Source: Chthoniobacteraceae bacterium | Lineage (GTDB): Bacteria > Verrucomicrobiota > Verrucomicrobiia > Chthoniobacterales > Chthoniobacteraceae | Length of the DNA: 64,000 nucleotides | Direction: 5' to 3' | Assembly: GCA_037190965.1 (NCBI GenBank) | Contig: JBBCKI010000024.1 | Coordinates: 1-64,000 of the forward strand | Part shown: positions 7,460-46,415 of the stretch, in pieces | How positions within the stretch are numbered: the stretch's first letter is position 1 | Layout of the letters: each line of letters starts with the position of its first letter | Notes under the pieces: model-generated | The model's database searches: none | Told to the model about the DNA's origin: nothing | Seen by the model: only the letters and a program-made list of their open reading frames with translations | Program-made: the position numbers and the translations under genes

Positions 7460-7528
7460 TAATCCGCATCAGGTTGTTGTACATGAGCGAGATACGATGG
7501 TATTAAAGACAATGTTCCCGTTCTGTTA

Positions 7529-8085
7529 TCACGCTGCTTTGCGATAGCAATGCCGTAACAGCCCGCACAGACGGCCCTCGCATTCAACCTCACCTGGATC
7601 GAACACCCCAACATCGGGCGGCGGCATCGCTACGATCCCGATTGTCCGATTCCCAATCCCTTGGTGCGGTCGGACGGTGTTGTAGTGGTCCTCGTACTCG
7701 CGGAGGAGGAACTCCAGATGTCGTTCGCCGAAAGTCACAAAATGATTGAGGCATTCATTCTGAATGCTTTGCACGAACCGCTCGGCATAGGCGTTCAGAT
7801 TGGGCGAACGATAGGGCAACCGCTTCACCTTGATTCCTTCACTCTCGAAAATCTCGTCGAACTTCTCGGTAAACTTGGTATCCCCGTCCTTGATCAGGTG
7901 CGTGGCCATTTCGTCTCGTTTGGCTAGTTCCATAACAAAGTTACGGGCCTGTTGCTCCACCCAAGGTCCATTCAGCTGGCAGCTCATCCCGGCGATCCGT
8001 ACCTTCCGGGTGCCAACGTGGATGAAGAAAAGGACGTAGTAGGTCACCTTGCCAAACCCGGTCCAGACGTCCTTCGCCAAGCATC
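7529..8085 (-). pseudogene. 5'-truncated integrase-core (rve, DDE) transposase
   Basis: YYVLFFIHVGTRKV, LIKDGDTKF, PYRSPNLNAYAERFV, YNTVRPHQG. The N-terminal HTH and first catalytic Asp region are missing. Confidence 0.85.
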
Positions 8086-13900: not shown

Positions 13901-14594
13901 AAGCCGTATTGATATTCACCTTGCAACTCTCGTCATCGGTCCAAAACGCGATCCGACCGACCATCGGATTGTCGGCAGTCGCGGCGGATTGATCTCTGAT
14001 GGAGCCATCCTTGAGCACATAGAGCCAGCGCACAGGCATCGCGGCACGATCGTCCCAGTTGGTATCTGTCTGGTCGGCCAGGGTGCTGCTGAAGCCTTCA
14101 ACCTCGCCGATTGCCGCAGGATTCAGGATGGGATAGACCCACCGCCGGGCGTCGCCGGTTCCCATCCGAATGGCGACTGGTTCGTTAAGGTCGGTGAATT
14201 CACTGGGGCGGGCCGACCAATTGGCTGGGAGATCGTCTTTCTCCGATTCGGGATCGAGAAACTCCAGGCTGCCGGTCTGCATTTCTCTCGATGAATAGAG
14301 CTTGTAGAGCTTCTCCAGTTTACCCTCATTGTCCCAAACGCGGATTGCGCCGGGTTGGCTCGCCCAGGCGTTGACTCTCGGGCCATGAAGCGTCGCATCC
14401 CGGATCTGCCCCTGCACCAGGGTCACGGCCAGTTCGGAGAGCGCGGTTGATTCCACGAGGGCCGCATTCTGTCCCGACGAGACCGTCTCATTGCGTCCTC
14501 CCAGAAATAGGGAAATGGCGAGGGCCGATAGCATCACCAGGCAAAGGAGGACGATGACCAGTGCCACGCCCGAGCGTGATTGTGGGGTATTCAT
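10929..14594 (-). CDS. vccA: Verru_Chthon cassette protein A
   Basis: GVALVIVL N-terminus, WASQPGAIR, GRIAFWTDDESCKVNINTA, EPYAISEPFSTAGRIN, GDNLRERPY. Confidence 0.92.
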   Translation of the reverse strand: MNTPQSRSGVALVIVLLCLVMLSALAISLFLGGRNETVSSGQNAALVESTALSELAVTLVQGQIRDATLHGPRVNAWASQPGAIRVWDNEGKLEKLYKLYSSREMQTGSLEFLDPESEKDDLPANWSARPSEFTDLNEPVAIRMGTGDARRWVYPILNPAAIGEVEGFSSTLADQTDTNWDDRAAMPVRWLYVLKDGSIRDQSAATADNPMVGRIAFWTDDESCKVNINTASGTKYSPAIINAGASAGYAANEDSFWDVPATFVRQDYNYGGAPPAEGEYQRSSAHPASVNLLEILKGATMKQIFDLTPRYKWGGSENGTLSSSNKRTSIAGNDAKRERLYASVDELQFSLLRKDGDREKNTLPVTSGATSQEMLDRWRFFLTAQSRSPDLNLFGQPRVALWPVSGQDDQDHRTVYDQLIARCSTLGAMDDLKRKEYFFQRLYPLSQTDDWDKFPRNQKIFSYLRDLTGSPIPGFGSNFREKYDVQEGGVSGEWDQILTEMFDYIRCVNLNESCKDIGSSFKSYTQNINAPTVASEIPNFLNSKTYPGAGFVVPISIPDYGTRGAGRIPTLSEVAVVMIQRSAPPLPSAPSTPVVSGTIQTGLFFETFTPMAGFMPWSATKFNLRVTSTAKINGADIFPGQSSGVMAFTGTGFEGGPMNNGAAGSSIGSADGFSWLLPKVSTDNPLKFNYSFCRLANNGIAAPSSTVALSQGEVSVELSVGGTPYQTIHVELPAANLPTPLPWISAGAANAYAYDWAWRRKNPPSSGYVIYPEDVVHSMVMRDGDYRIAAYLPVVPKGFFRPHRDFGQAGFHFAHSLRRKTHITARGSTFGKFVNVDYGKGDTLSNADLADPLATPKSYEPKIDPRITDLRAEGWEGDWDTGVSFYADGAYLNKPDDGFLNPRLAGRPYFKDTEWDRASGYFSPIRQMPSAAMFGSLPTGVKRTYAAYETDKWNEGRPWRTLLFCPNPAAGASHYGAQNPSDYLLLDFFNTPVVEPYAISEPFSTAGRINLNSQLLPFVYITRETGLHAVLSSQRVAAISNAAAPYYKDSAAQSKTDRIRFAINIEETLKQFKDRFAPNGKPEKGDLFKSAAEICSLFLIPNVGGSSSPTVANIASWWDGYQLTGDNLRERPYATTYPHLTTKSNVYTVHIRAQALKKVKGTPHDEFVENKDVVTSEYRGSATFERYIDPNDSRLTEMDPDKESLEPLYRYRIVETKKFAP

Positions 14595-33107: not shown

Positions 33108-36002
33108 ATGATATACCGCATGAAATTGCAGCAGATTCCTCTTATGCGTAGGGTGGATGTGGTTATATTCGGTGCGGGGACGGCGGCGGTATCCGCAGCG
33201 CGGGCCGCCCGCCAAGCGGGGAATGCGGTGCTCGTCCTGAGCGACCGCGCCTATCTAGGGGAGGAATCGGCGGGGGCGCTGGAGGTGATGGAGGAGACCA
33301 GGCACGGAGAGTTTCCCGGCAGCGGCATTGAGCCCGGGCGGCCCGGAACGGTTAAGCATGCCCTGGAGATGGCTCTATTGGAGGCAGGCGTCGATTTCCT
33401 TTTCATGGCTAGGCCGGTCGCGCTGCTGCCGGGCCAAGAGGGAGTGATTCACGTCGTCATTGCTTCGCGCACATCGCTGTTGGCGGTAAGCACTGGGCAG
33501 GTACTCGATGCCTCCACGCATGGGTTGCTGCGATCGTTGCCGGGGGTGGAGCGTTTTACCGCGCGGCCCCGGCGTGCGTTGAAGCGGACGGCCGCTTCAG
33601 CCATTCTGTTTGGTAACCTGGCGTGTCCGCCTAAGCTGGATGGCGTGAGGCTCACCCCAGTTGGGCGCACTATTTTATTCACGGACCGCGTCAAACGGGA
33701 CCGCATGGAAGTGCAGGCCTTCCGCGCGCAGTCGGAGGTGGAGCCCTGTGCGCTCACTCCTGAAGGCGCAAAGGCCGAGGCGGAATTTCGCGCTCGTCTT
33801 CTCCATCCCGGCGTTGAACTGCTGGCTGACGCCGTTCGCTGGAAGTTGACGAATACCGCCGAGGAAAATGTCGGGCTTTACGACGATCCGCTGGTTCTGA
33901 CCGCCGCGCAGTATGCCGTTCACCCGCAACTTTGGATCTGCGGACCGGAATTGCCATTGAGCGACGCAGGTCTGGCGACGCTTCATGATTCCGCCATCCT
34001 CGCCGCGCTGGGGCGGCGGCTGGCGGAATTGATGGCAGCGGAAGCACGGCGTCCGGGCGCTGTAAACGGAACCGAGCGGGACAAGGTCATGCCCGGGTTC
34101 GGCAAGATCCGCTTTGTGCCCTCCTTTCTCCGCGAAACAGTAGAGATGCTGGAGCTGGAACTGCCGGAGTTTCCTTTGCTGGATCAGTTCGATGTCGTCG
34201 TGGCAGGCGGTGGAACCGGCGGGGCTCCCGCAGGAATTGCCGCTGCTCGAAGCGGGAAAAGGACGCTGGTGCTGGAGCAGCAGCGGATGCTGGGCGGCGT
34301 CGGAACGGCGGGGACAATCGGGAGCTATTGGTTTGGTAACAAGGTCGGCTTTACGGCGGAGGTGGATAGCTTCCTGCACTCCACGGATCCCACCTATGTT
34401 GACCCGGAGCGCAAGCGCCCGCTCGCGACTTGGAATACGGAATTGAAAGCGGCCTGGTACCTGAGCCAGCTTCAGGCAGCGGGGGGAGAAGTTTGGTTAG
34501 GCAGTTTTGCCTTCGGCGTCGAGATGGACGGGGATTTCGTGGTGGGCGTTCTGGTTTCGACGCCTTTCGGCGCGGGGCTGGTGCGGTGCCGGAGTGTTGT
34601 GGATGCCTCGGGAAATGCTGACATCGCAGCAGCGGCCGGTGCGCCACTCCGCGTGATGGACGCCTTGCACAGCGCGGTGCAGGGGGCGGGGCTTTCGCCC
34701 CGGCGAGTGGGGGCGCATTATGTGAATACGGACTTCACCTTCATCGACGACAATGATCCGTACGGGATTACCTATGCTTACGTTCAGGCCCGGGCCAAAT
34801 TTCCCGAAGAGTTTGATTCCACAACGATCCTGAACACCCGGGAAAGGAGGCAGATCATCGGGCGTATCGAGCTTTCGCCGCTCGATTTTCTAGCCGGGCG
34901 GACGTTCCCCGATGTCATCAATACGGCCAGCAGCAATTTCGATACGCATGGGTTCACGACTCACCCCGTTTTTGCGGTAGTGGCTCCGGATCATGCGCCC
35001 CTCTCCGCGAATGTTCCCTTGCGTTGCCTGATGCCGCAACGGGTAAGGGGGGTGATCGTGACGGGTCTTGGCATGAGTGCTCACCGCGACAGCCTGCCGG
35101 TAATTCGTATGCAGGCGGATGTGCAGAACCAAGGCTACGCCGCCGGGCTGGCCGCGGCGATGGCGACGGATTGTGGCGGGGATTTTGATGCGGTCAACGT
35201 CCGGGTGCTCCAGAGGGAATTGGTCGCGCGGCAGGCGCTCGCCCCGGAGGCATTGGAGTGGGAAGACAGTTTCCCTTTGCCCCGGGAGGAGGTGGTCCGT
35301 TCCGCTGCCATTACGCCAGTCACGCTTTTTTCGGCCGCCATTCTTTTTGCGCACCCGGAGGAGAGCGTCCCTCTCCTGCGAGCCGCCATGCAGCAGCCCG
35401 CTTCAGACCTTCAATACGAGGAAGCCGCGCTGATGCTCGGACTGATGGCCGACGCCAGCGCTGCCTTTGGCCTTGCGGAGCTGATTGCGGCCCGGCCCTG
35501 GGACGAGGGATGGAATTACCGGGGCATGGGGCAATTCGGCATGAGCGCGAGCCGCACTGATGCGCTTATCGTGGCCTTGGGACGGACGCGCTCGGTGGAG
35601 GCCATCCCGGTGCTATTGGAAAAAATGGCGGCGCTTGGGAGTGATGCCGCTTTCTCTCACTGCCGAGCCGTGGCGCTGGCAGCGGGAAGCCTCGGAGCCT
35701 CGGAATACGTTCCCGCTCTGCAGCGGCTCCTTTCTCTGCCGGGAATGCAGGGGCATGCCATCGTCTCCTTCGGCGATGGGGTGCAGGCGGCAAACGGTGA
35801 CCCCGTGGAAACCGCCTCGCGCAACAATTCCCTGAGGGAGCTTTATCTAGCCAAGGGGCTTTACCTCTGCGGCGATTGCGACGGCACGGGCCGCCGTATC
35901 CTGGAAGGGTATAGCCGCGATCTGCGCGGTCCCTTCGCCCGCCATGCCCGGGCGGTTCTGAGTGCCTCAGATTTTGAGCTGCTGCGCCGTAAGAGCATTT
36001 AA
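33108..36002 (+). CDS. FAD-dependent oxidoreductase with two FAD_oxidored-like modules and a HEAT-like C-terminus
   Basis: DVVIFGAG (degenerate) and DVVVAGGGTGG...LGGVGT, VDASGNAD, QGYAAG. Confidence 0.85.
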   Translation: MIYRMKLQQIPLMRRVDVVIFGAGTAAVSAARAARQAGNAVLVLSDRAYLGEESAGALEVMEETRHGEFPGSGIEPGRPGTVKHALEMALLEAGVDFLFMARPVALLPGQEGVIHVVIASRTSLLAVSTGQVLDASTHGLLRSLPGVERFTARPRRALKRTAASAILFGNLACPPKLDGVRLTPVGRTILFTDRVKRDRMEVQAFRAQSEVEPCALTPEGAKAEAEFRARLLHPGVELLADAVRWKLTNTAEENVGLYDDPLVLTAAQYAVHPQLWICGPELPLSDAGLATLHDSAILAALGRRLAELMAAEARRPGAVNGTERDKVMPGFGKIRFVPSFLRETVEMLELELPEFPLLDQFDVVVAGGGTGGAPAGIAAARSGKRTLVLEQQRMLGGVGTAGTIGSYWFGNKVGFTAEVDSFLHSTDPTYVDPERKRPLATWNTELKAAWYLSQLQAAGGEVWLGSFAFGVEMDGDFVVGVLVSTPFGAGLVRCRSVVDASGNADIAAAAGAPLRVMDALHSAVQGAGLSPRRVGAHYVNTDFTFIDDNDPYGITYAYVQARAKFPEEFDSTTILNTRERRQIIGRIELSPLDFLAGRTFPDVINTASSNFDTHGFTTHPVFAVVAPDHAPLSANVPLRCLMPQRVRGVIVTGLGMSAHRDSLPVIRMQADVQNQGYAAGLAAAMATDCGGDFDAVNVRVLQRELVARQALAPEALEWEDSFPLPREEVVRSAAITPVTLFSAAILFAHPEESVPLLRAAMQQPASDLQYEEAALMLGLMADASAAFGLAELIAARPWDEGWNYRGMGQFGMSASRTDALIVALGRTRSVEAIPVLLEKMAALGSDAAFSHCRAVALAAGSLGASEYVPALQRLLSLPGMQGHAIVSFGDGVQAANGDPVETASRNNSLRELYLAKGLYLCGDCDGTGRRILEGYSRDLRGPFARHARAVLSASDFELLRRKSI

Positions 36003-36056
36003 TGCCGGGGAGGGGACTCGAACCCCTACTCCTTGCGGAACCAGATCCTAAGTCTG
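36003..36056 (-). repeat. att site: displaced 3' half of tRNA-Leu(TAG)
   Basis: Reverse complement CAGACTTAGGATCTGGTTCCGCAAGGAGTAGGGGTTCGAGTCCCCTCCCCGGCA. It has no D-arm and no 5' acceptor strand. Confidence 0.93.
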
Positions 36057-36277
36057 ATATGTATCAGCTGATTTTCAGTAGTTTACAGAAAATTCGAGAC
36101 ACGCTGACGTGTCTTGGCTTGTGCGCAAAACTTGAATTTTTGAGGGAGAGGGGGAAACGTAAGTCTTCTTAAGGTGAGGTGAACAGCTTTCGCCACTTCG
36201 AAAGGTTTTAGTCACTCAAGAATTTAGCTCAGAGGTCTGATGGAGATTGGCGAAGCAACTCTCAGTCGCGGGTGCGC

Positions 36278-36306
36278 TTGACATTGTATAAACACTCCTT
36301 CACGAT
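36278..36306 (+). promoter_or_regulatory. Sigma70-like promoter
   Basis: TTGACA-17 bp-CACGAT, 20 nt upstream of the ATG at 36326. Confidence 0.55.
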
Positions 36307-36325
36307 CAAACGACTTTTTACAAAT

Positions 36326-37150
36326 ATGTCGAAGAAACTTTGTTTTATCATATCCCCCATTGGCGAAGAAGGGTCAGAAGTTCGGAAGCGTGCCGACCAA
36401 GTTCTGAGGCATGTGTTAGCGCCAGCGGTTAATGGCTGTGGCTACGAACCAGTTCGTGCTGATACGATTGCGGAGCCCGGCTTGATTACAAGTCAGATTA
36501 TCCAGCACATTGTTGACGATCCCCTCGTCATTGCAGATTTAACCGGGATGAATCCTAACGTCTTCTATGAACTTGCTATCCGGCATGCTATTCGCAGACC
36601 GCTGGTTCAGGTAATTCAGAAAGGCGAAAAAATTCCCTTTGACGTTGCAGGAATGAGGACGATCCCGGTTGATCATCGGGATCTGGACAGCGTCGAAGAA
36701 GCAAAAGGTGAAATTCAAAAACAGATTAAGGCTGTCGAGAGTAAAAAGCCCGCCGATATCGATTCTCCTATCTCAGTATCCGTTGAGATCCAAAGCTTAC
36801 GGCAAAGCGAAAACCCGGAGAAGAGATCATTAGCGGAATTCGTTTCGGCAGTTGCCGATTTACGGTCAGATATTGCCGCAATTGAGAAGCGCATCTCCAG
36901 CCCTGAACGGATACTCCCGGTCGAATATCTTCGCGAGGTGATGCCGATGCTTCGACGAAGGTCAAGGGATAGTGAGATGATTTATAGAGAGCTTACGTCC
37001 TACGCTCGGGAGATGATTGAAGCAATACCAGAAAAGCAACGAGAGGCAGTCAAACCGGCTTTTCTGAGATTCGACAAATTGCTTTGTATGTTGCGCGATG
37101 AATCTTCAGGCTATGAGACAGGAGGGGGGGGGCGAAGCATTTTCGGGTAA
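36326..37150 (+). CDS. Nucleoside 2-deoxyribosyltransferase/TIR-like domain protein with helical C-terminus
   Basis: CFIISPIG, VRAD, VIADLTGMNPNVFYELAIRHA, IPFDV. Confidence 0.75.
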   Translation: MSKKLCFIISPIGEEGSEVRKRADQVLRHVLAPAVNGCGYEPVRADTIAEPGLITSQIIQHIVDDPLVIADLTGMNPNVFYELAIRHAIRRPLVQVIQKGEKIPFDVAGMRTIPVDHRDLDSVEEAKGEIQKQIKAVESKKPADIDSPISVSVEIQSLRQSENPEKRSLAEFVSAVADLRSDIAAIEKRISSPERILPVEYLREVMPMLRRRSRDSEMIYRELTSYAREMIEAIPEKQREAVKPAFLRFDKLLCMLRDESSGYETGGGGRSIFG

Positions 37151-37214
37151 TTCTGTCTTCGGACCTTCCTCGGATGGATATTCAGAGTTGGAGCGAATCA
37201 GTTCATTTAGGCTC

Positions 37215-37859
37215 TCATGCAGCCAATGCTTTCTTGACTCTCTGCACGGTGGATATACCAGTTCCCGTAATCTTAGCCGTATGCCGGATTGATTGCCCTG
37301 CTTTCAATTGGCGCACAATGTCTTTGTGATTTTGCAGGAAGGTATTTCGCTCAAGTTTTGAACCTTTGGGGCGACCAAGTTTCACACCCTTGCGTCGCGC
37401 CTCTGCTAACCCGGAGTTTATCCTTTCCCGGAGAATTTCCACCTCGCTTCGAGCCATTTCAGCGAGGAGGGCAAGCATTACTCCGGCTGCTGGGTTTCTC
37501 CTTCCGTTAGGCAGAAGGGTTTCAATGCCTTGGGCGTGCCAGTAAAGGGACACGCCGCATTCCTCAAGAATCTCGACGAATCGGTGAGTGGTGCTGTTCT
37601 TGCGTGAAAGACGCGAAACTTCGTGGACGAGAATCTTTTTGATCTTTCCAGAAGAAGCAAGCTCTTCAGCGCGCCTCAGCCCGTGGCGGTCTGATTCATC
37701 CGCTCGACCAGAAATAACCTCGCGGCAAATCTCAACAACCTCGTATCCCTTTCGAGTAGCATATTCCCGCAGTTCGGAAATTTGACGGTCGGTTTCCTGT
37801 TTAACGGTCGAAACCCTGACCAAGATTGCAACGGGAACGCTGGGGTGGCTCTTTTCCAT
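37215..37859 (-). CDS. Serine recombinase (resolvase/invertase) with C-terminal HTH
   Basis: ILVRVSTVKQ catalytic Ser motif, EVSRLSR, ERINSGL...GVKLGRP. Confidence 0.93.
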   Translation of the reverse strand: MEKSHPSVPVAILVRVSTVKQETDRQISELREYATRKGYEVVEICREVISGRADESDRHGLRRAEELASSGKIKKILVHEVSRLSRKNSTTHRFVEILEECGVSLYWHAQGIETLLPNGRRNPAAGVMLALLAEMARSEVEILRERINSGLAEARRKGVKLGRPKGSKLERNTFLQNHKDIVRQLKAGQSIRHTAKITGTGISTVQRVKKALAA

Positions 37860-38063
37860 GCCTTCAGAAATGGAGGGATGTATTCGAAAAATCAACTGTT
37901 TTCGTGAATACACTTATTCAGCCATTTCCTGCCAACCGGCTCTCTGTCCGTTCTGAGAAAAATCGGTGAATGTTTTTTTGAACACACTTATCGTTCTTTC
38001 ATTGCAAGTTAGTCCGTGAATGACGATCCCCCCAGAATCAGATTGATCCCATTGCTGAGGAGT

Positions 38064-38706
38064 CTACCTCGCCGGAGTAGTCTTTGCTCGACGCTGGCAA
38101 TCGGCACAAAACCCGGCTGATTCTGAATCGAGCAGTTCAAGGGAATCCTTCGTTTCGTCTGCCGTCATACAGCACCGGGACGCGATCCTCATAGGCGTGA
38201 TGATTCAAGTTGAGCGTATGCCCGATTTCATCGCGATTTTCACCGCTCGTTCAATCAACAATTCCGAATCTGGCGTATCCTGAGAAAGGGGATGTAGGCT
38301 TATGGTCGCCGCTGGTAGTCCGAGGTAGGCGTAACCAAACAAGAAATTGTAGCGCCGACTCGGGACGATGTTTTGCGCCGTCATGCCCAAGTTGACGAAG
38401 GTTCCTTTACGGTGTCGCCTGTAGACTTGAGCAAGGAAGACGCCAGCGGAAAGCCCCTTCCATTCTGAACGTGAAGAGGCGCGTTCGTCCAAATAGGTCG
38501 GTTGAATAACGACAGCCCCACCCAAAGGCTTCTCTGAGTCCAACGCATATCGGACCCAAGATCCCATCTTCAATGTCTCCCAGCCGCCAAATTGCAATTC
38601 CTTCGCGTGCCTCGTGAACAAGCGGTTGGTGGCACTGTGGACAGGTTAACTCGTGGATTCCCACGTAGAGACTACAGAACTGGCAGATGTTAGAGTCTCG
38701 TCGCAT
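38064..38706 (-). pseudogene. Frameshifted zinc-ribbon + archaemetzincin (M54-like) metalloprotease
   Basis: Pieces lie in different frames: CQFC...CPQC and IAIWRLG...; YNFLFGYAYLG...ERAVKIA; EIGHTLNLNH; CCM...FCADC. Confidence 0.75.
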
Positions 38707-38707
38707 C

Positions 38708-39319
38708 CTACCGACGTGCTTGCGCCTCTTGCTGCACTCTGGTTTTACTCGTGCCGGTTGGAAGCTCGTACTTCAACCGGATAAGCCGTTTGTCCGTCTC
38801 GGTAGGCTGCTCAGGAAAAGGTATGACCCAAAATGAATCGTGGTCTAGTCGCGTCCGTTCCTCCCGGTCCTCTGGAAAGCCGAGACTCCAAAGCAAAAGG
38901 TAGGGAGCAATAGCCGGGTTGGTAAATCCTTCTTCACTGTAAATGGGATACCAGACCTCAGCACGGGTGATCGCTTTATTCTGGATTTTCAGTTTCGCTC
39001 CTACCGTCACGCCGTTCCCATCGCCGTTTGCCCGGCTACCCCTTACAACGATGTCTGCTTTCTCATTCCCGTCTTCGATCAGTTTGATCTGAACAGGGAG
39101 TCCTTTCAGGGTCTCGTTAATTCCCTCCACTGCTTCTGCAATTATCGCCCGGTTGGCTCCAAATTCTCCGATGATAGAAAGAGTGGGGGATTTCTCAAAC
39201 CGAATGGATTCGCCCCGCTTTCCACACAAGACATATGTCGCAAGCTTAGGATCGATTGCTTGTACGTCCAAGGAGGACCAAACGAGGGTCGCGGCGAGAA
39301 TCAAAAATGTCTTTTTCAT
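38708..39319 (-). CDS. Secreted hypothetical protein (DUF2927-like), paralog 1
   Basis: Signal peptide. Shares RFEKSPT, GLPVQI, KADIV, PTE.DK..IR.KYE.P.GT with the adjacent gene. Confidence 0.65.
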   Translation of the reverse strand: MKKTFLILAATLVWSSLDVQAIDPKLATYVLCGKRGESIRFEKSPTLSIIGEFGANRAIIAEAVEGINETLKGLPVQIKLIEDGNEKADIVVRGSRANGDGNGVTVGAKLKIQNKAITRAEVWYPIYSEEGFTNPAIAPYLLLWSLGFPEDREERTRLDHDSFWVIPFPEQPTETDKRLIRLKYELPTGTSKTRVQQEAQARR

Positions 39320-39948
39320 TTGAGCGTCTTTTTTGCGAGTTCCCGAACTTTCCATTTGTCGGTTCCAGACGGGATCTCGTACTTGAAGCGGATCGCCTGT
39401 TTGTCGATTTCGGTCGGTGTCATGGGAAGGCGTTCGCCGATATAAGACGAAACACTCCACATGGAATCTTTGCGGATCTTTTCGCCCACATTCGCAAACC
39501 CCATCGCATTCATGATTTTATGATATGCACCTCGTTTATCGGGTTCTCCAAGAGTCCATTCTGGTAGCCAGTTCGAAATGATCGTTGCCTTAAAAATGTA
39601 CCCGTTCTTATACTCTCGATCCACGTCAAAAGCTTTGCTTAACTCAGCCTGCGTGATTGGTTTCGTGTTGTAGACGATATCAGCCTTCTTGTCGTTATCG
39701 GCGACAACAATGATCTGAACGGGAAGCCCTTCCCAGACGGCATTGAGTTCAGAGACGACCTCCAGAATCATTTTTCGATAAACACCGGGGTCTCCGACGA
39801 TTGAGAAGGTTGGGGATTTCTCAAATCGAAAGGACTTTTGTCCTTGGCAGATGATCTCCGCTATAAACTTATCGTCGAGCTTTTCTTGCGCACAGGCGAG
39901 TGTTGACGCGCAGATTGAGAGAACGGCTGCCAGTAGCTTGATTTTCAT
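39316..39948 (-). CDS. Secreted hypothetical protein (DUF2927-like), paralog 2
   Basis: Signal peptide; tandem paralog with ATGA overlap. Confidence 0.65.
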   Translation of the reverse strand: MKIKLLAAVLSICASTLACAQEKLDDKFIAEIICQGQKSFRFEKSPTFSIVGDPGVYRKMILEVVSELNAVWEGLPVQIIVVADNDKKADIVYNTKPITQAELSKAFDVDREYKNGYIFKATIISNWLPEWTLGEPDKRGAYHKIMNAMGFANVGEKIRKDSMWSVSSYIGERLPMTPTEIDKQAIRFKYEIPSGTDKWKVRELAKKTLK

Positions 39949-39974
39949 TGTTCTGTAAAAGTTATCCTTCAAAA

Positions 39975-40715
39975 TCAATTTGTTCTCCGCCGGACTCGGT
40001 AAGCAGAGAGCAATAATCCGCCTGTCATTCCGAGGAGCGCAATGCCTGATGGTTCAGGGACCACGGCAAAGTTGTTGAACGACTGCTGATTTGAAGTGGT
40101 GGACGGGGCATTTCCGTTGAAGAAGAGGTGAAACTGCGAGATTTCAGTCCCTCCAGCGGCGGCTATCAGGTTTCCGCTTCTGCTTATGACCGTTGTCGAG
40201 CCGATTTGATTTACGGCAATCGTGTACGAGGAAGCGCCCGTAAGAGTGAATTCGATGTGGATTCCTTGAGTCGTCTTATTCGCTGACTTCCACCCCGGTC
40301 CATCGTCATCCGTCATCGTGTAACTGGGAGTGAACCCTCCGTAACAGTCGAACTCAAAAAGTAGACTGCCCGAGGCGTTCTCCAGCTTGAACCCGGCAAC
40401 GCTCCCCATTTCGAGCGTACCACTGTAGTAGTCCATGCTGAATGTTTGCCCTATCCCTAAAGCCCCGCCAAATGAACGGACCGCTTGGGCGTTTGTGCCT
40501 GTGCTTGCTTGCAAGGTCAAGGCGGTCCCTGCCGAAAACGTGCCACTGGGACCGCTAGAATTGAGGGTCCAAGAAGAGCCCCAGCCGTACCCGCCATTGC
40601 TGCCGTTGCTCCAGCCCGTCGAGTATGCGGCATTTGCAGCCCTATCGGAAGCAATGGTCGCAGAGTTGCCGTGAACAGGTAGGAGGCAGACCACCGAAAA
40701 CAAGAGGGGTTTCAT
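39975..40715 (-). CDS. PEP-CTERM surface protein
   Basis: ASDRAANAAYSTGWSNGSNGGYGWGSSW N-terminus; VPEP-TM-RVRRR. Confidence 0.9.
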   Translation of the reverse strand: MKPLLFSVVCLLPVHGNSATIASDRAANAAYSTGWSNGSNGGYGWGSSWTLNSSGPSGTFSAGTALTLQASTGTNAQAVRSFGGALGIGQTFSMDYYSGTLEMGSVAGFKLENASGSLLFEFDCYGGFTPSYTMTDDDGPGWKSANKTTQGIHIEFTLTGASSYTIAVNQIGSTTVISRSGNLIAAAGGTEISQFHLFFNGNAPSTTSNQQSFNNFAVVPEPSGIALLGMTGGLLLSAYRVRRRTN

Positions 40716-40784
40716 TTTCCCGGCAAAGCCGGAAGGGCTCAGAAAAGGCGATGCCTTCAATTGTAAATCGCTGTCCATATAAAC

Positions 40785-40876
40785 GCTCCTTTATCGGAGT
40801 AAACAACGGGCGAGGTCAAGGAAATGTGCTCCTTTATACGAGCACTTCCATGAAATGTACCCTTTATCTTGAGTAC
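40785..40876. promoter_or_regulatory. Three repeated operator-like palindromes between the divergent PEP-CTERM and XRE genes
   Basis: gctcCTTTATcggagt (40785-40800), gtgctcCTTTATacgagcac (40826-40845), gtaccCTTTATcttgagtac (40857-40876). Confidence 0.65.
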
Positions 40877-40892
40877 CCCGTCCTACGGGGGC

Positions 40893-41168
40893 ATGAAATC
40901 CGCGCTCAACATTATCGGCTCAAACATTCGCAAGATTCGGGCTTACAAAGGTCTTACTCAGGAGCAGGTTGCCGTAAAGTGTCAGGTTTTGGGCTTCGAT
41001 TTGACTCGAGGCACCCTTGCCAAGATTGAAAGTGGCGTTAGATCGGTCTCCGACCATGAAATTCCATACCTTGCACGCGCCCTCGAAGCCAACATCGAAG
41101 ATCTTTTTCCCACGGAGCTGATTCCTGTGCATCGAGAGCCAAGATTTAAGGGGAGCAGGGATCAGTGA
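40893..41168 (+). CDS. XRE-family HTH regulator
   Basis: IGSNIRKIRAYKGLTQEQVA...TLAKIESG...LARAL. Confidence 0.9.
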   Translation: MKSALNIIGSNIRKIRAYKGLTQEQVAVKCQVLGFDLTRGTLAKIESGVRSVSDHEIPYLARALEANIEDLFPTELIPVHREPRFKGSRDQ

Positions 41169-41377
41169 CTGAGCGCTATAAAGCCGCTGGTCGCTTCTCC
41201 CGCAAGGAATATCTCGAAGAGCAGGGGGAACCCTATGAGTTTGGAGCCGATTTAGCAGTGGATACATTCAATCGGTCCGAGAACTCATGATCGAAGAAGC
41301 GAGCCCCCGGTCCTATCTTCCTCATGATAAAACGAAACAGGGATTTGGACGCGTAGCGGACAACATCCCATCCAGTG

Positions 41378-41434
41378 AAAAAAGCTCGAATTGAGAGCGA
41401 CAGCGAACAATTCCCGACCTCGGTCGAGCTTTTT
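41378..41434 (-). terminator. Terminator-like branched hairpin, possibly bidirectional
   Basis: aaaaagctcga ... tcgagcttttt 11-bp inverted repeat with A/T runs on both sides. Confidence 0.55.
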
Positions 41435-42164
41435 GAAAGCTCATGAAAATAACTTAGAATTTCCGGGCTAAGGAAGTTTTAAAGAAATTCTGGATTATTC
41501 TGATCGAGTTTCTCTGTGGGTCGCTTGATTCACCGACTTCGCGTCGCGTCAAGACGCGCCGCTTAGTCGGTTCATCCGCTCCTAAGTGGCTAACTGCTCA
41601 TTCTTCACAGTTAGCCCAACCTGATTTTTTTGACTAAATCATCGCGTAAGCGAAACGTAGCGGTGGCGTCAAGACATGGTTAGCCCTAGACGCCGATCAA
41701 AGCGTTTTTGGGCTATAAGGAGATAGGTCTCCCGCAACAACCGCTTGCCACTCGCTTGAGTAGCTTGCTGCGTTGTGAAAACGGCAATCGTAGGTCCGAC
41801 TTTCCCCTTGGTAGGGCGAATGCATCCTAGCTCTTAAGGCGAGCGTCCGTTTCCGCTATCGACTCGACCGGCTCGGGAGTCACTCCGATTAAACCAGCTA
41901 GCCAATTTTCGACTCTTTCGAGTCTTACCGTCTCCGGGTTTTTGAGAACTTTCGTTCCGCATTTTCCACAAGATCTAGCCCGGCGCATTGAGCCTCGCTA
42001 AAAGCGCAGTTTTCGCTCCCTCAAGAGACTACTGGCATGCGCACGGCGTCGTTTCCTTATGTTTCGGGGGCGTCTGTCCGTCTATTCCAGACTACGTTGA
42101 CCCTTACTCATCGTCCACCTCGAATTCCAAACAGGGGCTATGACCCATCGAGGCGGCGGGCTAG
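41378..42164 (-). ncRNA. Candidate large (~790 nt) highly structured non-coding RNA (possibly MISL-like or new)
   Basis: No ORF of 60 aa or more. More than 12 helices, with minus-strand GAAA/GAGA/CUUG tetraloops and G-U pairs. The 5' end is closed by CUAGCCCG/CGGGCUAG and the 3' end by a stem followed by U6. Confidence 0.72.
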
Positions 42165-42246
42165 TTATATTTACACATTAATTAATGCTTTTTAACCGAG
42201 AATTAAAATTTTTTATTCCCACGGCATTTTCTGTGTAAAGACATGG

Positions 42247-42813
42247 GTGAATACCCAAGGGATCGTAATTTATGCCGTAGTATGCCTTGCCGACCGACAT
42301 CGCTACATCGGCAGCACCTCAAGAATCGAGAAAAGAGCGTTAGAGCACTGGCGTGATCTTGCCAAAGGAACTCATTTCAGCAAAAGCCTTCAGGTTGCAT
42401 ACAATAGGCATGGGCGTGAAATGTTTGCCTTTTTTATTCTTGAGCGGATCAAAGATGAAGATCAAGTGCGCGAGCGGGAGGAATTCTATATTGCCGATGC
42501 CATCCGAGGAGGAGAAGCATACAACGTTTCACCCGTGGGTGGCAGTAGACGAGGCTATAAACTCAGCGAAGAGACTCGTAGAAAGCAGTCGCTTGCAAAA
42601 ACCGGAAAAAGGCGTCCGGGATTCGGAGCTAAGATTGCGGCGAAGATTTCCAAAGTTTACCGTTTTCTATCTCCAGAAGGTGTATTGGTCGAAACATTCG
42701 GTCTGCGTGACTTCTGCCTGCGGCATGGCTTGAGCATGGGGAATATGAGCCGTCTTGCCAGAGGTTACTTAAAGCAATGTAAGGGCTGGACGGCTGCACC
42801 AACCCTTTCGTGA
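42247..42813 (+). CDS. Free-standing GIY-YIG homing-type endonuclease with NUMOD3 and a C-terminal HTH-like DNA-binding module
   Basis: VIYA...YIGST, catalytic R (IEKR), EH, REE, YN; LSEETRRKQS (NUMOD3); FCLRHGL...KGW. Confidence 0.9.
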   Translation: MNTQGIVIYAVVCLADRHRYIGSTSRIEKRALEHWRDLAKGTHFSKSLQVAYNRHGREMFAFFILERIKDEDQVREREEFYIADAIRGGEAYNVSPVGGSRRGYKLSEETRRKQSLAKTGKRRPGFGAKIAAKISKVYRFLSPEGVLVETFGLRDFCLRHGLSMGNMSRLARGYLKQCKGWTAAPTLS

Positions 42814-43070
42814 AGCAAAAGCGGCGGCTACAGGCATTTAAAAGCGATTGAGGGGCATTTCTGGGGGAGAAATAGTTCACCGCCCCCCGGTTCTCGCAGA
42901 TTTTCCAGTGATTCCGTTTTTTTCAAAAACGGCGGCGGGGCTGTCAGGTGCTAGAAAAAGACAATCTAATGTATATCTCGCAATCAGTTCAACCTATCTG
43001 CGAAAGAGAGCAATGACTTGCGACGGGCTATTGGCTACGCCGTTTTTAACAAAAAATCAAGAAATAAAAG

Positions 43071-43325
43071 TTGCATTTCTGCGGATTTATGATCTTGAGT
43101 TTTTTTAAATTTGTTGATAATGGTTGTGTGTCGATTGAGAACAACGAATCCGAAGACAGTATCCTAGCGTTTCGCTTTAACGCTGAGGGGGAGGCTGTTT
43201 TCCTTCAGCAGTTCAAGTCAGAGCGAGATCGTCTGGCATTGATCTCCTTTGCAAGGATCGTTGTTGACCAACTGAGCGTCGATTTCACCAAATCTTTAAG
43301 CCAACGACAGCTTCATCTTAATTGA
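43071..43325 (+). CDS. Small hypothetical protein (start uncertain)
   Basis: ORF convergent with, and slightly overlapping, the integrase; no recognisable motif. Confidence 0.3.
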   Translation: MHFCGFMILSFFKFVDNGCVSIENNESEDSILAFRFNAEGEAVFLQQFKSERDRLALISFARIVVDQLSVDFTKSLSQRQLHLN

Positions 43326-44489
43326 ATCGACTAAATGCTGATTTTTTTCCATGACTCCCTTCGGTAGTATGTTCCAAAACTTTAGCGCATCCTTGTGGTG
43401 AACGACATCACGATAGGTATTGTACAGGAGAACTGCATTGGGATGTCCTAGGAGCACAGCCGTTGCGCTTGCATTTTTGAAAGCTGCGACGTGATAGCTG
43501 GCGAATGAATGGCGCATCGCATTCTGATGGTATTCGATTTTAGCGCCTTCGCGGACTTTGCGCAGTCGATTTGAGTAATTCTTTGGCGACACCCTGCCTG
43601 TAGAGGCGCAGCATTCCAGCCAAGCTAACGCATTTTTTGGAATTTCATTGGACCGCCTTCTCCCCTTTTTCGCAATCGCCGCAGTGACCTCCACTCGTCT
43701 TTGCTCTAGGTTTATATGCTGCCAGTCGAGCTTCTGTGCTTCCTCGACCCGAATTCCACAGAAGAGTACAAGGACCATGCACGCGCACTCCGCCTTGGCG
43801 TTCGAATCCAGAGCGTGCTGAAGGAGTGTCTTAACATCCGCTGTGGTCAGGCAGGTAACCTTGCTTTCGATTTGTTTTGGTTTTGGAACCTTGGCAAAGG
43901 GATTGAGTTCTCGGGAGATGTAGCCGCGCTCGGCTAGAAAATTGAACAGCAGGACGCCATGTCGTAGATGGTTTCTCCGTGTGGTTTGGTTCCACTTGTG
44001 ATTCTTGTTGTAAATGTACCCCTCCGCTTGCTTGAAATCCACGTTAGTAACGAGGCAGTCTTTGAAGAACTTTTGGAGTGCGCCGAAATACTCTTCGGCA
44101 GATTCGAGGTATCGCTGACTTAGACCGGCTTTGGTTTTAATTTTAAGAAACTCTCTGATTGCCTCTTTGAAGGAAATTGCGGGCTTCGATGGCTTCGCGT
44201 GTTTTAAGAAGAACTCAACGGCATCGTTGAGGGATGCGCCGTAGGGGCGCAGTTTTTCGAGTGCTCCCAAGACCTCATAGCGGGTTGATTGCGCCAAATC
44301 GGACAGCGCCAGCGGGCTTTTCCGTCGAATTTCTTCGTCTGCCTTGCGTTTGAATTCTTGAGCTGCCGCCAAAGTGGGAAAGGTCGGCTGCTTTCTCTTC
44401 CCCTGCACCATGCCCAAATCGACCCGGTAGCTGACGCTCCCACTGCGATTTCGCTTTGGGTGGATCTTTGTTTCCGTCTTCACCTGCAT
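43296..44489 (-). CDS. Tyrosine recombinase/integrase
   Basis: FCGIRVEE (R), AKKG (K), AMRHSFASY, LLGH, YR; adjacent to the tRNA att site. Confidence 0.95.
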   Translation of the reverse strand: MQVKTETKIHPKRNRSGSVSYRVDLGMVQGKRKQPTFPTLAAAQEFKRKADEEIRRKSPLALSDLAQSTRYEVLGALEKLRPYGASLNDAVEFFLKHAKPSKPAISFKEAIREFLKIKTKAGLSQRYLESAEEYFGALQKFFKDCLVTNVDFKQAEGYIYNKNHKWNQTTRRNHLRHGVLLFNFLAERGYISRELNPFAKVPKPKQIESKVTCLTTADVKTLLQHALDSNAKAECACMVLVLFCGIRVEEAQKLDWQHINLEQRRVEVTAAIAKKGRRRSNEIPKNALAWLECCASTGRVSPKNYSNRLRKVREGAKIEYHQNAMRHSFASYHVAAFKNASATAVLLGHPNAVLLYNTYRDVVHHKDALKFWNILPKGVMEKNQHLVDSIKMKLSLA

Positions 44490-44587
44490 CGTGAAAACGT
44501 GCCTCAAAGCGTGTCTCGGTCAAGCAAAAACTTCCCGAAATTCCTTTCGAGGTGTTTTTGTAAGTCTCTGGAAATCAGAGATTTAAG

Positions 44588-44669
44588 TGCCGGGGACAGG
44601 ACTTGAACCTGCACTCCTTTCGGAACCAGATCCTAAGTCTGGCGCGTCTGCCAATTTCGCCACCCCGGC
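44588..44669 (-). tRNA. tRNA-Leu(TAG), CCA not encoded
   Basis: GCCGGGGTGGCGAAATTGGCAGACGCGCCAGACTTAGGATCTGGTTCCGAAAGGAGTGCAGGTTCAAGTCCTGTCCCCGGCA folds as a cloverleaf with a variable arm. Confidence 0.96.
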
Positions 44670-44795
44670 GGGTGATAGGCGAGAGAAGGAAAGCGTTTCA
44701 TGGCGGTAATCGCAAGCGATTTAATGAGCTGTGAGGATTGGAGCCCCGTCCGCCCTGGACCCGGTTTAGGAACGGCTCTCCCTATCACCCGCTGG

Positions 44796-46415
44796 CTAAA
44801 AGGAGACCAAAGAAACATTCTCTCCGTCGTTCTTTTGCAACGAGAGGCTGATCTGGCGCATGATCCAAACGCCGCGCTCAAAAAGTGAGGTGATGTAGAA
44901 TAACGTGGCGCGATCCTGATGCGCCAGTTCCCGTTCGGCGTTGATATAGGCACGGCGCAGCCGCTCCATCATATCGCCCCGGTCTTCGGTCATGCGTTGC
45001 AAAAGATCAATGTCCATGGCGTCTCCTGTTTCCACGGCATCGATGGTGCTCAAAAGGAGGGTCGCAAGGGCCTCGACCATGTTATGGAGCAGCGGGGCCA
45101 GCTTTGGAGAGACTTGGTTGCACTCTATCGTTTGGACTAGCCCGGAAACATTCTCACTCAGCGCCATGGTCAAGGCCAACCGCCGTTCAAGCCTCAGGAG
45201 TTGGCCGGAGGCTTCTCGCGTCAGGGGCTTGTTCACCAGATCAGCAAGAAAGTTCTGGATCTCCCGAGCCACCGAACCGCTTGCAAGGTGGAGGCTCTTG
45301 CTTTCGGCGGCTCCCCCGGTCCCTTCGTCCCTGACGCTATCGAGGGATTGCGGCGCATACTTGAGCAGGCGCAGAATCTCCTTGTCCACCAGTTCCAAAG
45401 CAGAGACGGGATCCTCCAGAGCCTGGTCGTGAATAAAGTGCAGTTTGGATAAATCCTGTTCCAGGGTGGGGGGAGAGAGGCGAGCCAGCCAACGGGATGC
45501 GCCGGGCTGAAGAATCAACGCCGAGCAGACGCAAACGCTTTGCAGCGCCACAAAGGAATAGGCAAGCCGGTCTTCGAGGCCAAAGGAAAGGCTCTGCAGA
45601 AGAGAACTGATGAGTGGAAGCCCTGTCCATACTTCGAGATAGAATGAGAAGAGAAGGAGAAGGCTCGCACAGAGATTGATTCCTCCTTGAAAAAGAGCGA
45701 TCTGACGGGGGATCCCGGCGATGTTTACCCCGAGCAGGAGCACGGTAGCAGCCACCCCTGCGCCAGTGCCAAACATCATCAGCATCGCCTGGTCTTCCTT
45801 CAACAATCCCCCGTGCGCGAGCGCGATGGCGATGATGGCGATTGCTGAAGAGGATTGGATCACCACACGTAAGAGGCCGCCCAAAAGGAAGCAGGCAAAA
45901 ATCGACCCATGAAGAAATTCGGTCAGTGAGGTGAACCACGGAAAGGAGGGAAGCGGCGCGAAAGCGTCCTTCATCAGCTTGAGGCCGAGAAAGAGGATGC
46001 CGATGCCAAAAAACGTCCCCGCCAGAATGCGAACCTTCCCCCGAGCTTTGACAATATTCATCAACCCGGCAAGCCCAATGAGATAGAGCACCGCCACGTG
46101 GATATTGACGGCGGCCAGGAGAACAAGAAGAGCGGTCCCCAGGTTTGCCCAGGCCACCACGGGCAACGCTTTGGAGACCGTCATCAACCCGCTCGAGATG
46201 ACGCTGACGAGAATGAAGGTGACGGCCGTAGAGCTTTGGGTGATCGCTCCAAGAGCAAACCCCCAGAGTGAGGCAACCAGAGGCCGATTCGTCCACCGCG
46301 CCAGTACCCGGCGAAAGCGACGGCTGGTAATCTGCTGAAGATGAACCTTGATGTCATTGATTCCAGCGAGGAAGAGACTCAACCCCGCCAGAAAAGTCGC
46401 TAGAATCTCGGTCAT
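44796..46415 (-). CDS. Na/Pi cotransporter family protein with PhoU-like C-terminus
   Basis: Two QSSS/QSST repeats, WANLGT, many TM helices, helical tail. Confidence 0.88.
   Translation of the reverse strand: MTEILATFLAGLSLFLAGINDIKVHLQQITSRRFRRVLARWTNRPLVASLWGFALGAITQSSTAVTFILVSVISSGLMTVSKALPVVAWANLGTALLVLLAAVNIHVAVLYLIGLAGLMNIVKARGKVRILAGTFFGIGILFLGLKLMKDAFAPLPSFPWFTSLTEFLHGSIFACFLLGGLLRVVIQSSSAIAIIAIALAHGGLLKEDQAMLMMFGTGAGVAATVLLLGVNIAGIPRQIALFQGGINLCASLLLLFSFYLEVWTGLPLISSLLQSLSFGLEDRLAYSFVALQSVCVCSALILQPGASRWLARLSPPTLEQDLSKLHFIHDQALEDPVSALELVDKEILRLLKYAPQSLDSVRDEGTGGAAESKSLHLASGSVAREIQNFLADLVNKPLTREASGQLLRLERRLALTMALSENVSGLVQTIECNQVSPKLAPLLHNMVEALATLLLSTIDAVETGDAMDIDLLQRMTEDRGDMMERLRRAYINAERELAHQDRATLFYITSLFERGVWIMRQISLSLQKNDGENVSLVSF

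Follow-up and report, generated by a model that had tools for sequence, protein, structure and literature searches.

A conserved, covarying structured element adjoins a GIY-YIG homing endonuclease gene in two tRNA-integrating islands of soil Verrucomicrobia

Gene content of a tRNA-Leu island

The window, the whole stretch of 64,000 nucleotides that was analysed, carries in this Chthoniobacteraceae bacterium an island of 8,585 bp bounded by direct repeats of the 3' part of a tRNA-Leu gene. An integrase beside the tRNA gene and a tRNA 3' repeat at the far end identify it as a tRNA-integrating genomic island, and the GC content is 0.46-0.55 within the island as compared with about 0.6 in the flanks. 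Apart from the structured element described in the next section, the island has the following features.

35992..36056, no strand: left island border, displaced tRNA-Leu 3' part (att repeat), a 65-nt direct repeat
36272..37150, plus strand: TIR-like protein, island cargo (PADLOC PDLC00733 'TIR effector' 3.8e-10; phrog_3634 1.6e-53; no Pfam match)
37215..37913, minus strand: serine recombinase of the resolvase/invertase type (Pfam Resolvase 1.3e-28 with HTH_7; phrog_125 DNA invertase)
38708..40778, minus strand: three genes, from ORFs and translations, without a Pfam, PHROGs or PADLOC match
40869..41168, plus strand: XRE-family HTH regulator, convergent with the RNA (Pfam HTH_31 6.5e-8, HTH_3 1.1e-6)
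42247..42813, plus strand: predicted free-standing GIY-YIG + NUMOD3 homing endonuclease, 188 aa, with a C-terminal DNA-binding module (Pfam, PADLOC, PHROGs, 1LN0/1MK0 alignment)
43071..43325, plus strand: small ORF adjoining the integrase (tblastx 41% to positions 6271-6408 of L069, a related island; no Pfam or PHROGs match)
43296..44507, minus strand: tyrosine integrase (Pfam Phage_integrase 7.7e-13; phrog_1 5.4e-34)
44577-44641, inside tRNA-Leu(tag): right att repeat, 83% identical to the left copy at a spacing of 8585 bp
44587..44669, minus strand: tRNA-Leu(tag), the integration target (ARAGORN; Rfam 58.3 bits)

The initial annotation described an element without replication, conjugation or capsid genes, which was borne out: none was found among the 11 island ORFs compared with Pfam or the 12 compared with PHROGs. 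Nor did any island ORF match a satellite-type primase/helicase replication module (Pfam, PHROGs, PADLOC) or, among helper-packaging and capsid-size genes, a structural or packaging family (Pfam, PHROGs), four ORFs being without any family. The lack of replication, packaging and capsid-related genes in Pfam and PHROGs is evidence against the phage satellite that had been offered as one interpretation.

A structured element read on the minus strand

The ORF-free gap at 41290-42246, in which the longest stop-free frame spans 81 codons, folds at -286.4 kcal/mol on the minus strand (z -5.46) and at -265.7 kcal/mol on the plus strand (z -3.38). A single homolog of the putative RNA was found, at locus L064 of G485, a genome from another genus of the same family, where the RNA strand likewise folds better than its complement (-395 vs -345 kcal/mol). 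The gap was divided as follows.

41378..42165, minus strand: predicted full RNA, 788 nt, both ends assumed (no long ORF; fold z -5.46; no Rfam match at E<=10)
41379..41434, no strand: symmetric hairpin flanked on either side by A/T runs (11-nt arms, 100% complementary; absent from the terminator scan output)
41665..42165, minus strand: RNA segment of about 500 nt with conservation in G485 (nhmmer E 1.2e-14; collinear blocks; identity profile)
41711..41903, minus strand: central nine-helix domain, 193 nt, closed by GGCUA/UAGCC (covariance model R1; covariation with G485)
41855..41904, minus strand: core with the highest conservation, 50 nt with 92% identity to G485 and one 1-nt indel (blastn)
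42166..42246, no strand: divergent intergenic region containing conserved blocks shared with G485 (alignment A6)

The covariance model R1 recovers L064 8468-8670 on the minus strand at full length (82 bits, E 5e-22). In the resulting alignment of the central domain, all 94 of 94 scoreable base-pair positions of the two copies are paired. Both partners changed in 16 of 49 pairs, against 0-2 for the six slid controls and 0 of 500 for the shuffles. These pair counts are somewhat inflated, as the structure comes from the window copy and its fit to G485 was made by hand and by the model. The double changes span nine helices, long-range ones with about 70 and 190 nt between their strands among them; six pairs of the 8-bp helix P3, anchored between invariant flanks, are fully compensated, and nine G-U cells would turn into A-C mismatches on the opposite strand. 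Pairing of UAGCC with the upstream GGCUA competes with pairing to the downstream one. A 1-nt indel and a TAA in the L064 core break every reading frame, so that coding is ruled out for the core. The gap is thus a structured element, conserved, covarying and read on the minus strand. To this extent the 'giant RNA' of the initial annotation stands; the conserved part is about 500 nt, and neither the identity profile nor the blocks extend into the 3' 290 nt. An RNAalifold result on the 5' domain was discarded as evidence since it was built on a poor MAFFT alignment.

Three DNA runs from two soil studies contain island sequence, and no RNA run was listed. Seven substitutions occurred in run X3, from the second soil study; all three of those within the central domain sit in hairpin loops, and mapping the seven on whole-length MFE folds favours neither outcome. 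Island parts without cover in runs X2 and X3 carry no interpretation.

The hairpin at 41379-41434 is a possible two-way terminator and would then provide the assumed 3' end of the RNA. Putative promoters are placed in the intergenic region 42166-42246, a role assigned by inference because the sigma-70 scan was empty there; the scan listed no sigma-70-like promoter on the minus strand. The spacing of about 80 bp between the RNA and the nuclease gene, as first annotated, depends on an assumed RNA start near 42165; their head-to-head arrangement recurs in both copies.

In Rfam 15, a search of 36000-46000 at E<=1 matched tRNA alone, and one of 41250-42260 at E<=10 gave three snoRNA/U4 matches (12-15 bits), which lie on the other strand and are put down to chance. 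The RNA matched none of the Rfam 15 covariance models for GOLLD, ROOL, OLE, HEARO and group I/II introns. Two motifs, which we took to resemble group I intron core elements, were dropped given their wrong order and the lack of an Rfam intron model match. There are no tandem repeats in 41100-43300.

The adjoining GIY-YIG nuclease

The nuclease was described at the outset as an intact I-TevI/Seg-like GIY-YIG protein, and the domain analysis agrees. Pfam places a GIY-YIG domain (PF01541, 6.5e-9) ahead of NUMOD3 at residues 103-127 (1.5e-4), and residues 135-183 match the C-terminal part of phrog_2081 (1.4e-6). The protein accordingly has the composition of I-TevI/Seg-type enzymes, a GIY-YIG catalytic domain and a modular DNA-binding region made of the NUMOD3 linker and a C-terminal module. 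Its alignment with the I-TevI catalytic domain 1LN0/1MK0 (E 2.9e-10) keeps IY, Y-GS, EKR, ERE and YN, that is, positions Y, Y, R and N together with the glutamate of 'ERE', and the same positions are conserved in alignment A8. We take these Tyr, Tyr, Arg, Glu and Asn positions to be the I-TevI catalytic residues. Both PADLOC and PHROGs label the protein a homing endonuclease, and by these matches it is intact and I-TevI-like. Whereas I-TevI is intron-encoded, the present gene lies outside an intron: no group I/II model matched, and the RNA is read from the opposite strand. A further difference lies in the C-terminal module, which matches phrog_2081 and not a solved I-TevI DNA-binding domain.

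Standard homing-endonuclease modules cover all 188 residues. At E<=1e-3 the family comprises 34,021 representative clusters, the best other member being 46% identical; relatives occur in 365 phage records, of which the best is 36% identical. Judged by family size, the nuclease is a member of a huge and ordinary homing-endonuclease family. A nuclease scan of genome contigs gave one irrelevant match, to NUMOD3 only.

The same pair in a second, otherwise unrelated island

Each of the two known RNA copies adjoins a GIY-YIG gene, and both times RNA and gene are divergent. In G485 the nuclease homolog lies at L064 8956-9513, and its protein is 53% identical to that of 42247-42813, whereas the RNA cores are 92% identical. 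Such a core, far more conserved than the nuclease, would fit a function of the RNA and equally a joint function. The island that houses the G485 copy is a tRNA-Cys one whose integrase is distant and whose cargo differs, in contrast to the tRNA-Leu island here; a link of the RNA to tRNA-Leu integrases, for which the initial annotation proposed a survey, is not general. Comparison of island with island by tblastx returned the RNA core, the nuclease gene, a weak integrase match and nothing else, and the identity profile climbs solely over about 41660-42830; by both measures homology is absent past the nuclease stop codon. Because the same pair recurs in a second, otherwise unrelated island, the sequence comparison indicates that the RNA and the nuclease gene travel together (n = 2). 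The co-occurrence anticipated for RNA homologs and GIY-YIG genes was therefore found in two of two copies and in the same orientation, albeit with very few cases, and no RNA allele without the nuclease was found among the two.

A third nuclease homolog, 39% identical and apparently intact, occurs at L069, a tRNA-Leu island whose integrase is about 50% identical. No nhmmer or covariance-model match to the RNA was obtained in its gap, which folds at z -2.6 and -3.0 without strand bias; an 11-mer common to this gap and the RNA, noticed by eye, was treated as chance. The RNA was likewise absent beside viral relatives of the nuclease, at 0 of 21 and 0 of 65 loci (86 in total).

The cargo of the three related islands includes a TIR-like protein, a NotI restriction-modification system and a NACHT NTPase, which would fit defence islands and has no bearing on the RNA itself.

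Searches for further copies

DNA searches of 40 relatives, 300 genomes of the class and 400 of the phylum gave no homolog of the RNA, the last returning seven short chance matches (E 0.002-0.007). The RNA was absent from 50,697 phage and 72,556 plasmid records, nhmmer found none in 59 fetched loci, and the covariance model R2 retrieved from 151 family genomes the two known copies alone. Neither the RNA nor the nuclease gene was found in five genomes of the same genus. An IMG/VR match to a 20-nt core lay inside a 646-aa ORF without wider similarity and was rejected as chance; the gapped core pattern had 0 matches. As for the integrase, a scan of metagenome contigs gave one locus at 35% identity, and homologs from the phylum search were at most 35% identical. 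A homologous-protein search returned the query alone.

Possible roles of the RNA and the nuclease

The analysis establishes the island, the intact nuclease, the conservation and covariation of the RNA and the co-occurrence in both copies. We tentatively favour a new, large structured RNA gene, uncatalogued in Rfam 15, that moves together with a selfish free-standing homing endonuclease, as tRNA genes do with T4 SegB. From here on we infer transcription, cleavage, homing and the independence of the two functions, each as a conditional step. The RNA and the nuclease gene would form a cassette, some 1.15 kb long (about 41665-42813), that has moved between tRNA-integrating islands of soil Verrucomicrobia; the minus-strand transcript may extend here to about 790 nt. 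The nuclease would use modules of its own, NUMOD3 and the C-terminal one, to locate DNA and would cut related cassette-free DNA, probably in or near the highly conserved core of the RNA gene, and repair would then copy the nuclease gene along with the adjoining RNA gene. The RNA would act in trans, independent of the nuclease, perhaps, as a guess, as cargo for phage-host conflict; given the defence-type cargo of the related islands, it may belong to that repertoire. Several points count against this course. Homing needs an RNA allele free of the nuclease, and both known copies carry the gene. The absence of homology past the nuclease stop codon makes classical two-sided homing impossible between these islands as they stand, and the hosts are chromosomal islands and not phages, which makes it less certain that co-resident alleles would meet. 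A core so much more conserved than the nuclease would, moreover, suit a joint function equally well.

The gene of T4/T6 SegB is reported to lie in the tRNA gene cluster, and the enzyme to recognise, in DNA, a motif conserved in tRNAs and to cause the region to be inherited jointly (PMC2330249); segB is described as enriched near tRNA genes across 296 phage genomes (PMC13096335). A free-standing GIY-YIG gene adjoining structured-RNA genes and inherited jointly with them is common to both cases (PMC2330249; PMC13096335), and the target, a conserved RNA-gene motif read as DNA, is counted as a likeness to that proposed for the cassette. According to these descriptions the neighbour differs, being here one large uncatalogued RNA and not tRNAs, as does the setting, a chromosomal tRNA-integrating island and not a phage, for which cassette homing is a proposal. 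The likeness is one of description, the best phage relative of the nuclease being 36% identical. If the favoured explanation is true, homing endonucleases spread structured-RNA genes among chromosomal islands, and the SegB-tRNA principle would hold outside phages as well.

Unlikely, though it survives best among the alternatives, is a functional pair in which the RNA binds or controls the nuclease, as guide or scaffold in a ribonucleoprotein or as inhibitor or antitoxin against self-cutting. The two head-to-head copies with similar spacing and conserved intergenic blocks, the sole shared piece of two unrelated islands, speak for it. More doubtful still is its specific form, a working unit whose RNA has a 3' part templated by cassette-flanking DNA: since the RNA runs past the conserved cassette into a non-homologous flank, its 3' part differs between loci and formally resembles guide segments drawn from flanking DNA. 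The RNA-nuclease ribonucleoprotein of the initial annotation meets contrary evidence as an obligate complex, however: the 188-aa protein is fully explained by the catalytic, NUMOD3 and C-terminal modules of phage homing endonucleases, its family of 34,021 clusters is ordinary, and the L069 homolog and the 86 viral relatives lack the RNA. Compared with the att regions, the RNA has a longest match of 9 nt for the window and 8 nt for L064, as against 8-12 in shuffles; the idea of a bridge or guide thus gains no att complementarity above shuffles.

Omega-RNAs are co-directional with their nuclease gene or overlap it, and the HEARO RNA turned out to form a ribonucleoprotein with IscB. Here, the RNA lies on the opposite strand, divergent from the nuclease gene and without overlap. 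As far as the available text on IscB and TnpB (OMEGA) goes, the likeness consists in a mobile-element nuclease gene beside a conserved structured RNA, part of which is templated by flanking DNA (PMC13565253); the present nuclease is GIY-YIG and not RuvC/HNH, no Rfam HEARO model matched, and att complementarity is not above shuffles. Type III toxin-antitoxin systems, with a tandem-repeat RNA upstream of and co-directional with the toxin, differ in both respects, as the present RNA is without repeats and divergent from the nuclease. A GIY-YIG enzyme using or obeying an RNA would be new for the superfamily; a working unit, if true, would be the first case in which a large dedicated structured RNA sets the activity, target choice or toxicity of a GIY-YIG nuclease, and it would parallel HEARO/IscB in another nuclease superfamily.

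It is improbable that the RNA serves the island, as a Rep-independent origin or primer RNA in the style of ColE1 RNA II or as a satellite packaging or hitch-hiking signal, with the nuclease incidental. In favour of this, the island lacks any recognisable replicase, primase, relaxase or capsid gene, and of its conserved parts just the large structured RNA is left unexplained; yet the RNA is shared with an island of different integrase and cargo, has no detectable copy in the related tRNA-Leu island L069 or in the phage and plasmid records, and is not conserved in the 3' part, at which primer and origin would come together. Least probable is that the gap is no RNA gene but a conserved DNA or ssDNA element (a nuclease recognition region or recombination site) or a chance-conserved spacer, as the two known copies, the empty minus-strand promoter scan and the absence from RNA runs might suggest, for 16 double changes over nine helices are unexpected in a double-stranded DNA site and the folding asymmetry between strands is strong at both loci.

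Large bacterial non-coding RNAs of complex fold are few, and each opened new biology. The present RNA has strong covariation support from just two copies, with nothing alike in Rfam 15. It resembles GOLLD and ROOL, as these are described in the available text, in being a several-hundred-nt, many-helix non-coding RNA on a mobile element (PMC12286853; PMC5737381), and differs in having no Rfam 15 match at E<=10 on the 1-kb gap and in being much rarer, in two of the genomes searched. The available text of both sources does not mention a nuclease partner of GOLLD or ROOL.

Minor features of the island

The small ORF at 43071-43325 has similar counterparts in all three islands by tblastx, as L064 4459-4590 in G485 also matches L069 6271-6408, and possibly encodes an excision or regulatory factor. 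Two of the three genes in 38708-40778 are paralogous, and the trio contains an internal 44-nt repeat with 82% identity. Read by eye, the two paralogs show N-terminal signal-like stretches, and the third gene (39975-40778) ends in an apparent C-terminal PEP-CTERM-type tail.

The island and its genes

The island lies between two direct copies of a tRNA-Leu segment: positions 44577-44641 (65 nt, covering the 3′ part of the tRNA gene) have an 83% identical counterpart at 35992-36056, at a distance of 8585 bp, and the GC content is 0.46-0.55 between the repeats against about 0.6 outside. The genes with an assigned identity are as follows.

Features of the window island and its integration target
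44587-44669, minus strand: tRNA-Leu(tag), integration target of the island
43296-44507, minus strand: tyrosine integrase (Pfam)
42247-42813, plus strand: GIY-YIG and NUMOD3 protein (Pfam)
40869-41168, plus strand: XRE HTH regulator (Pfam)
37215-37913, minus strand: serine resolvase/invertase (Pfam)
36272-37150, plus strand: TIR-like protein, outermost island gene (PADLOC 3.8e-10; phrog_3634 1.6e-53)

Several other island genes have no family match. The initial annotation described an element free of replication, conjugation and capsid genes, correctly, since the island ORFs (11 searched in Pfam, 12 in PHROGs) gave no hit to a family of replicases, primases, relaxases, packaging or capsid proteins; its description lacked the serine recombinase and the TIR-like gene.

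A new structured RNA in the ORF-free gap

The longest stop-free frame in the gap at 41290-42246 does not exceed 81 codons. The predicted folding energy is -286.4 kcal/mol for its minus strand (z -5.46 against 20 shuffles) and -265.7 kcal/mol for its plus strand (z -3.38). Rfam 15 gave three matches in the whole window at the gathering score, all tRNA and none in the gap; at E<=1 tRNA-Leu was the only match in 36000-46000, and at E<=10 the gap alone returned three snoRNA/U4 matches of 12-15 bits on the other strand, attributable to chance. No Rfam intron model matches the gap, and tandem repeats like those of type III antitoxins are absent. The only sigma-70-like site in 40800-43400, TTGAAA-16-TAGAAT at 41433-41460 (plus strand, 10/12), points into the gap, towards the nuclease gene, and is probably a chance occurrence, as shuffles give 2.2 such sites.

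By blastn, the gap matched nothing in 40 relatives, 300 genomes of the class, phages and plasmids, and gave seven short chance matches without a homolog in 400 genomes of the phylum. The 150 further genomes searched within the family yielded one match, 91% over 55 nt (E 1.2e-12), in a genome of another genus (G485; locus L064). It was lengthened by nhmmer to about 300 nt (E 1.2e-14). With collinear blocks added, it spans about 500 nt of window sequence (~42165-41665) and about 440 nt of L064 (~8868-8430), and conservation also takes in the spacer that runs to the start codon of the nuclease. In 151 family genomes, the covariance model R2 found only the two known copies. The "giant RNA" of the initial annotation is a structured element conserved over about 500 nt; the 3′ 290 nt assigned to it are not conserved. 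A small protein gene was rejected, because a 1-nt indel in the core and a TAA in L064 disrupt every frame.

The stretches from GGCUA to UAGCC (window 41903-41711, L064 8670-8468), folded separately, adopt the same architecture, and both copies fit one common nine-helix scheme. R1, a covariance model that combines this scheme with the window sequence only, recovered the G485 copy at full length (82 bits, E 5e-22). In the R1 alignment of the two copies, standard pairs occupy 94/94 cells and 16 of the 49 pairs are changed on both sides, counts that lean towards the structure because a single copy supplied it and the alignment was then fitted to it. Six slid controls gave 0-2 such pairs and 31-51% pairing, and none of 500 shuffles equalled the observed values. 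P3, an 8-bp long-range helix with invariant flanks directly on either side, has six fully compensated pairs. The functional strand is the window minus strand, because nine cells are G-U, a pair that turns into an A-C mismatch when the opposite strand is read, and because this strand folds better at both loci (-395 vs -345 kcal/mol in L064). Contigs of a run from a second soil study (X3) are about 98% identical over 41581-41885 and 41951-42079, and their three substitutions in the central domain (41836, 41727, 41726) all fall in hairpin loops. We regard the element as a genuine structured RNA and as a new one.

By eye, UAGCC, the 3′ strand of the closing helix, can in either copy also pair with a conserved GGGCUA that lies shortly downstream (window 41683-41716, L064 8450-8473, minus strand), in competition with the upstream GGCUA; this could be a switch or a pseudoknot-like alternative.

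A cassette common to two different islands

The head-to-head arrangement recurs in G485, where the RNA faces a GIY-YIG and NUMOD3 gene (L064 8956-9513) whose product is identical to the window nuclease at 96/182 residues (E 5e-71). In a tblastx comparison of the whole window island with 11.6 kb of G485, similarity was confined to the RNA core and the nuclease gene, apart from a weak, generic match between integrases. The site of the G485 island is tRNA-Cys, and its cargo includes a NotI restriction enzyme and a methyltransferase. Because of the head-to-head arrangement and the lack of other specific similarity between islands of different site and cargo, the RNA and the nuclease gene constitute a common cassette of about 1.15 kb, which extends from the point where RNA conservation ends to the stop codon of the nuclease. 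Of the co-occurrence of RNA homologs with a GIY-YIG gene and a tRNA-Leu integrase, raised in the initial annotation, the nuclease part holds for both known copies and the tRNA-Leu part does not.

The 188-residue nuclease aligns with the I-TevI catalytic domain (1LN0, 1MK0; E 2.9e-10) and retains the Tyr, Tyr, Arg, Glu and Asn positions, presumably the catalytic residues of I-TevI. The NUMOD3 motif lies C-terminal of the catalytic domain, and the module at the C terminus is one that phage HNH endonucleases have as well (phrog_2081). Its relatives fill 34,021 representative clusters with E<=1e-3, against 13 with E<=1e-30, and the best cluster besides its own is 46% identical. There are also matches to 365 phage records, none of which reaches 60% identity, and most among the 25 phage matches listed are annotated as homing endonucleases. 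Judged by sequence, nothing sets the nuclease apart within its very large family, and the fixed neighbour of the RNA is a standard free-standing homing endonuclease.

The nuclease without the RNA

The nuclease protein had no match in 400 other genomes of the phylum at E<=1e-8, and two in 150 other family genomes, G485 and G479 (39% identical). The G479 island (L069), at tRNA-Leu(tag), is related to the window island, with an integrase about 50% identical; it also has a serine recombinase, a small conserved ORF and, as cargo, a NACHT NTPase. Its GIY-YIG gene, apparently intact with a 26-residue insertion, faces a gap of about 1 kb that yielded no nhmmer match, no covariance-model match with filters off and no strand bias in folding. 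R2 likewise gave no match in a set of 54 loci, made up of L069, integrase neighbours and 21 viral relatives of the nuclease, or in 65 further viral loci found with a subfamily alignment.

The G479 island is on the 5′ side of tRNA-Leu(tag) (L069 4832-4914), opposite to the window arrangement, and its far repeat (14098-14140) is a 43-nt copy of the tRNA 5′ half, 98% identical to window 44627-44669. Two motif copies of about 26 nt (9929-9955 and 10025-10050) were seen by eye in its gap, upstream of the NACHT NTPase gene.

Possible relationships between the RNA and the nuclease

By analogy, we tentatively favor a selfish nuclease that co-mobilizes the adjoining RNA gene. The nearest documented likeness, T4 SegB, is described as a GIY-YIG endonuclease encoded among tRNA genes, whose recognition site includes the conserved T-arm motif and which promotes the inheritance of itself and the surrounding tRNA genes (PMC2330249); segB is reported to be enriched near tRNA genes in 296 phage genomes and able to amplify adjacent loci (PMC13096335). 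The nuclease would similarly drive the spread of the RNA gene beside it, whose ultra-conserved core is a plausible DNA target. This reading has weak points: only two copies are known, neither of them a nuclease-free allele, homology stops where the nuclease gene ends, and the context is chromosomal islands.

A working unit, with the RNA as guide, scaffold or inhibitor of the nuclease, would be the more important result but appears unlikely. In a limited literature search, the passages of PMC13565253 on GIY-YIG and SegB described no GIY-YIG enzyme with an RNA partner. That the RNA helps the island to replicate or to be packaged is more doubtful still, and its absence from the related G479 island weakens this reading. 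Complementarity of the RNA to the att regions was not above shuffles, which gives no support to the idea that it acts as a bridge or guide for the integrase.

Other features of the related islands

With their TIR-like (window), NotI restriction-modification (G485) and NACHT NTPase (G479) genes, the islands look like small defence islands. Inside the G485 island, a SAM-I/IV riboswitch (L064 6837-6952, plus strand; 42.2 bits, gathering 41.1, E 8.5e-4) precedes two ORFs of no family (6974-7213, 7216-7869), convergent on the RNA 3′ side; a SAM riboswitch beside a restriction-modification system on a mobile island is unusual. A small ORF adjoining the integrase is similar among all three islands (window 43071-43325, plus strand; L069 6271-6408; L064 4459-4590; about 41% in tblastx); it has no family match and could encode a factor for excision or directionality. 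In the window, an 18-nt inverted repeat, 89% complementary (42917-42934/43038-43055) and enclosing 103 nt, occupies part of the spacer that separates this ORF from the nuclease gene.
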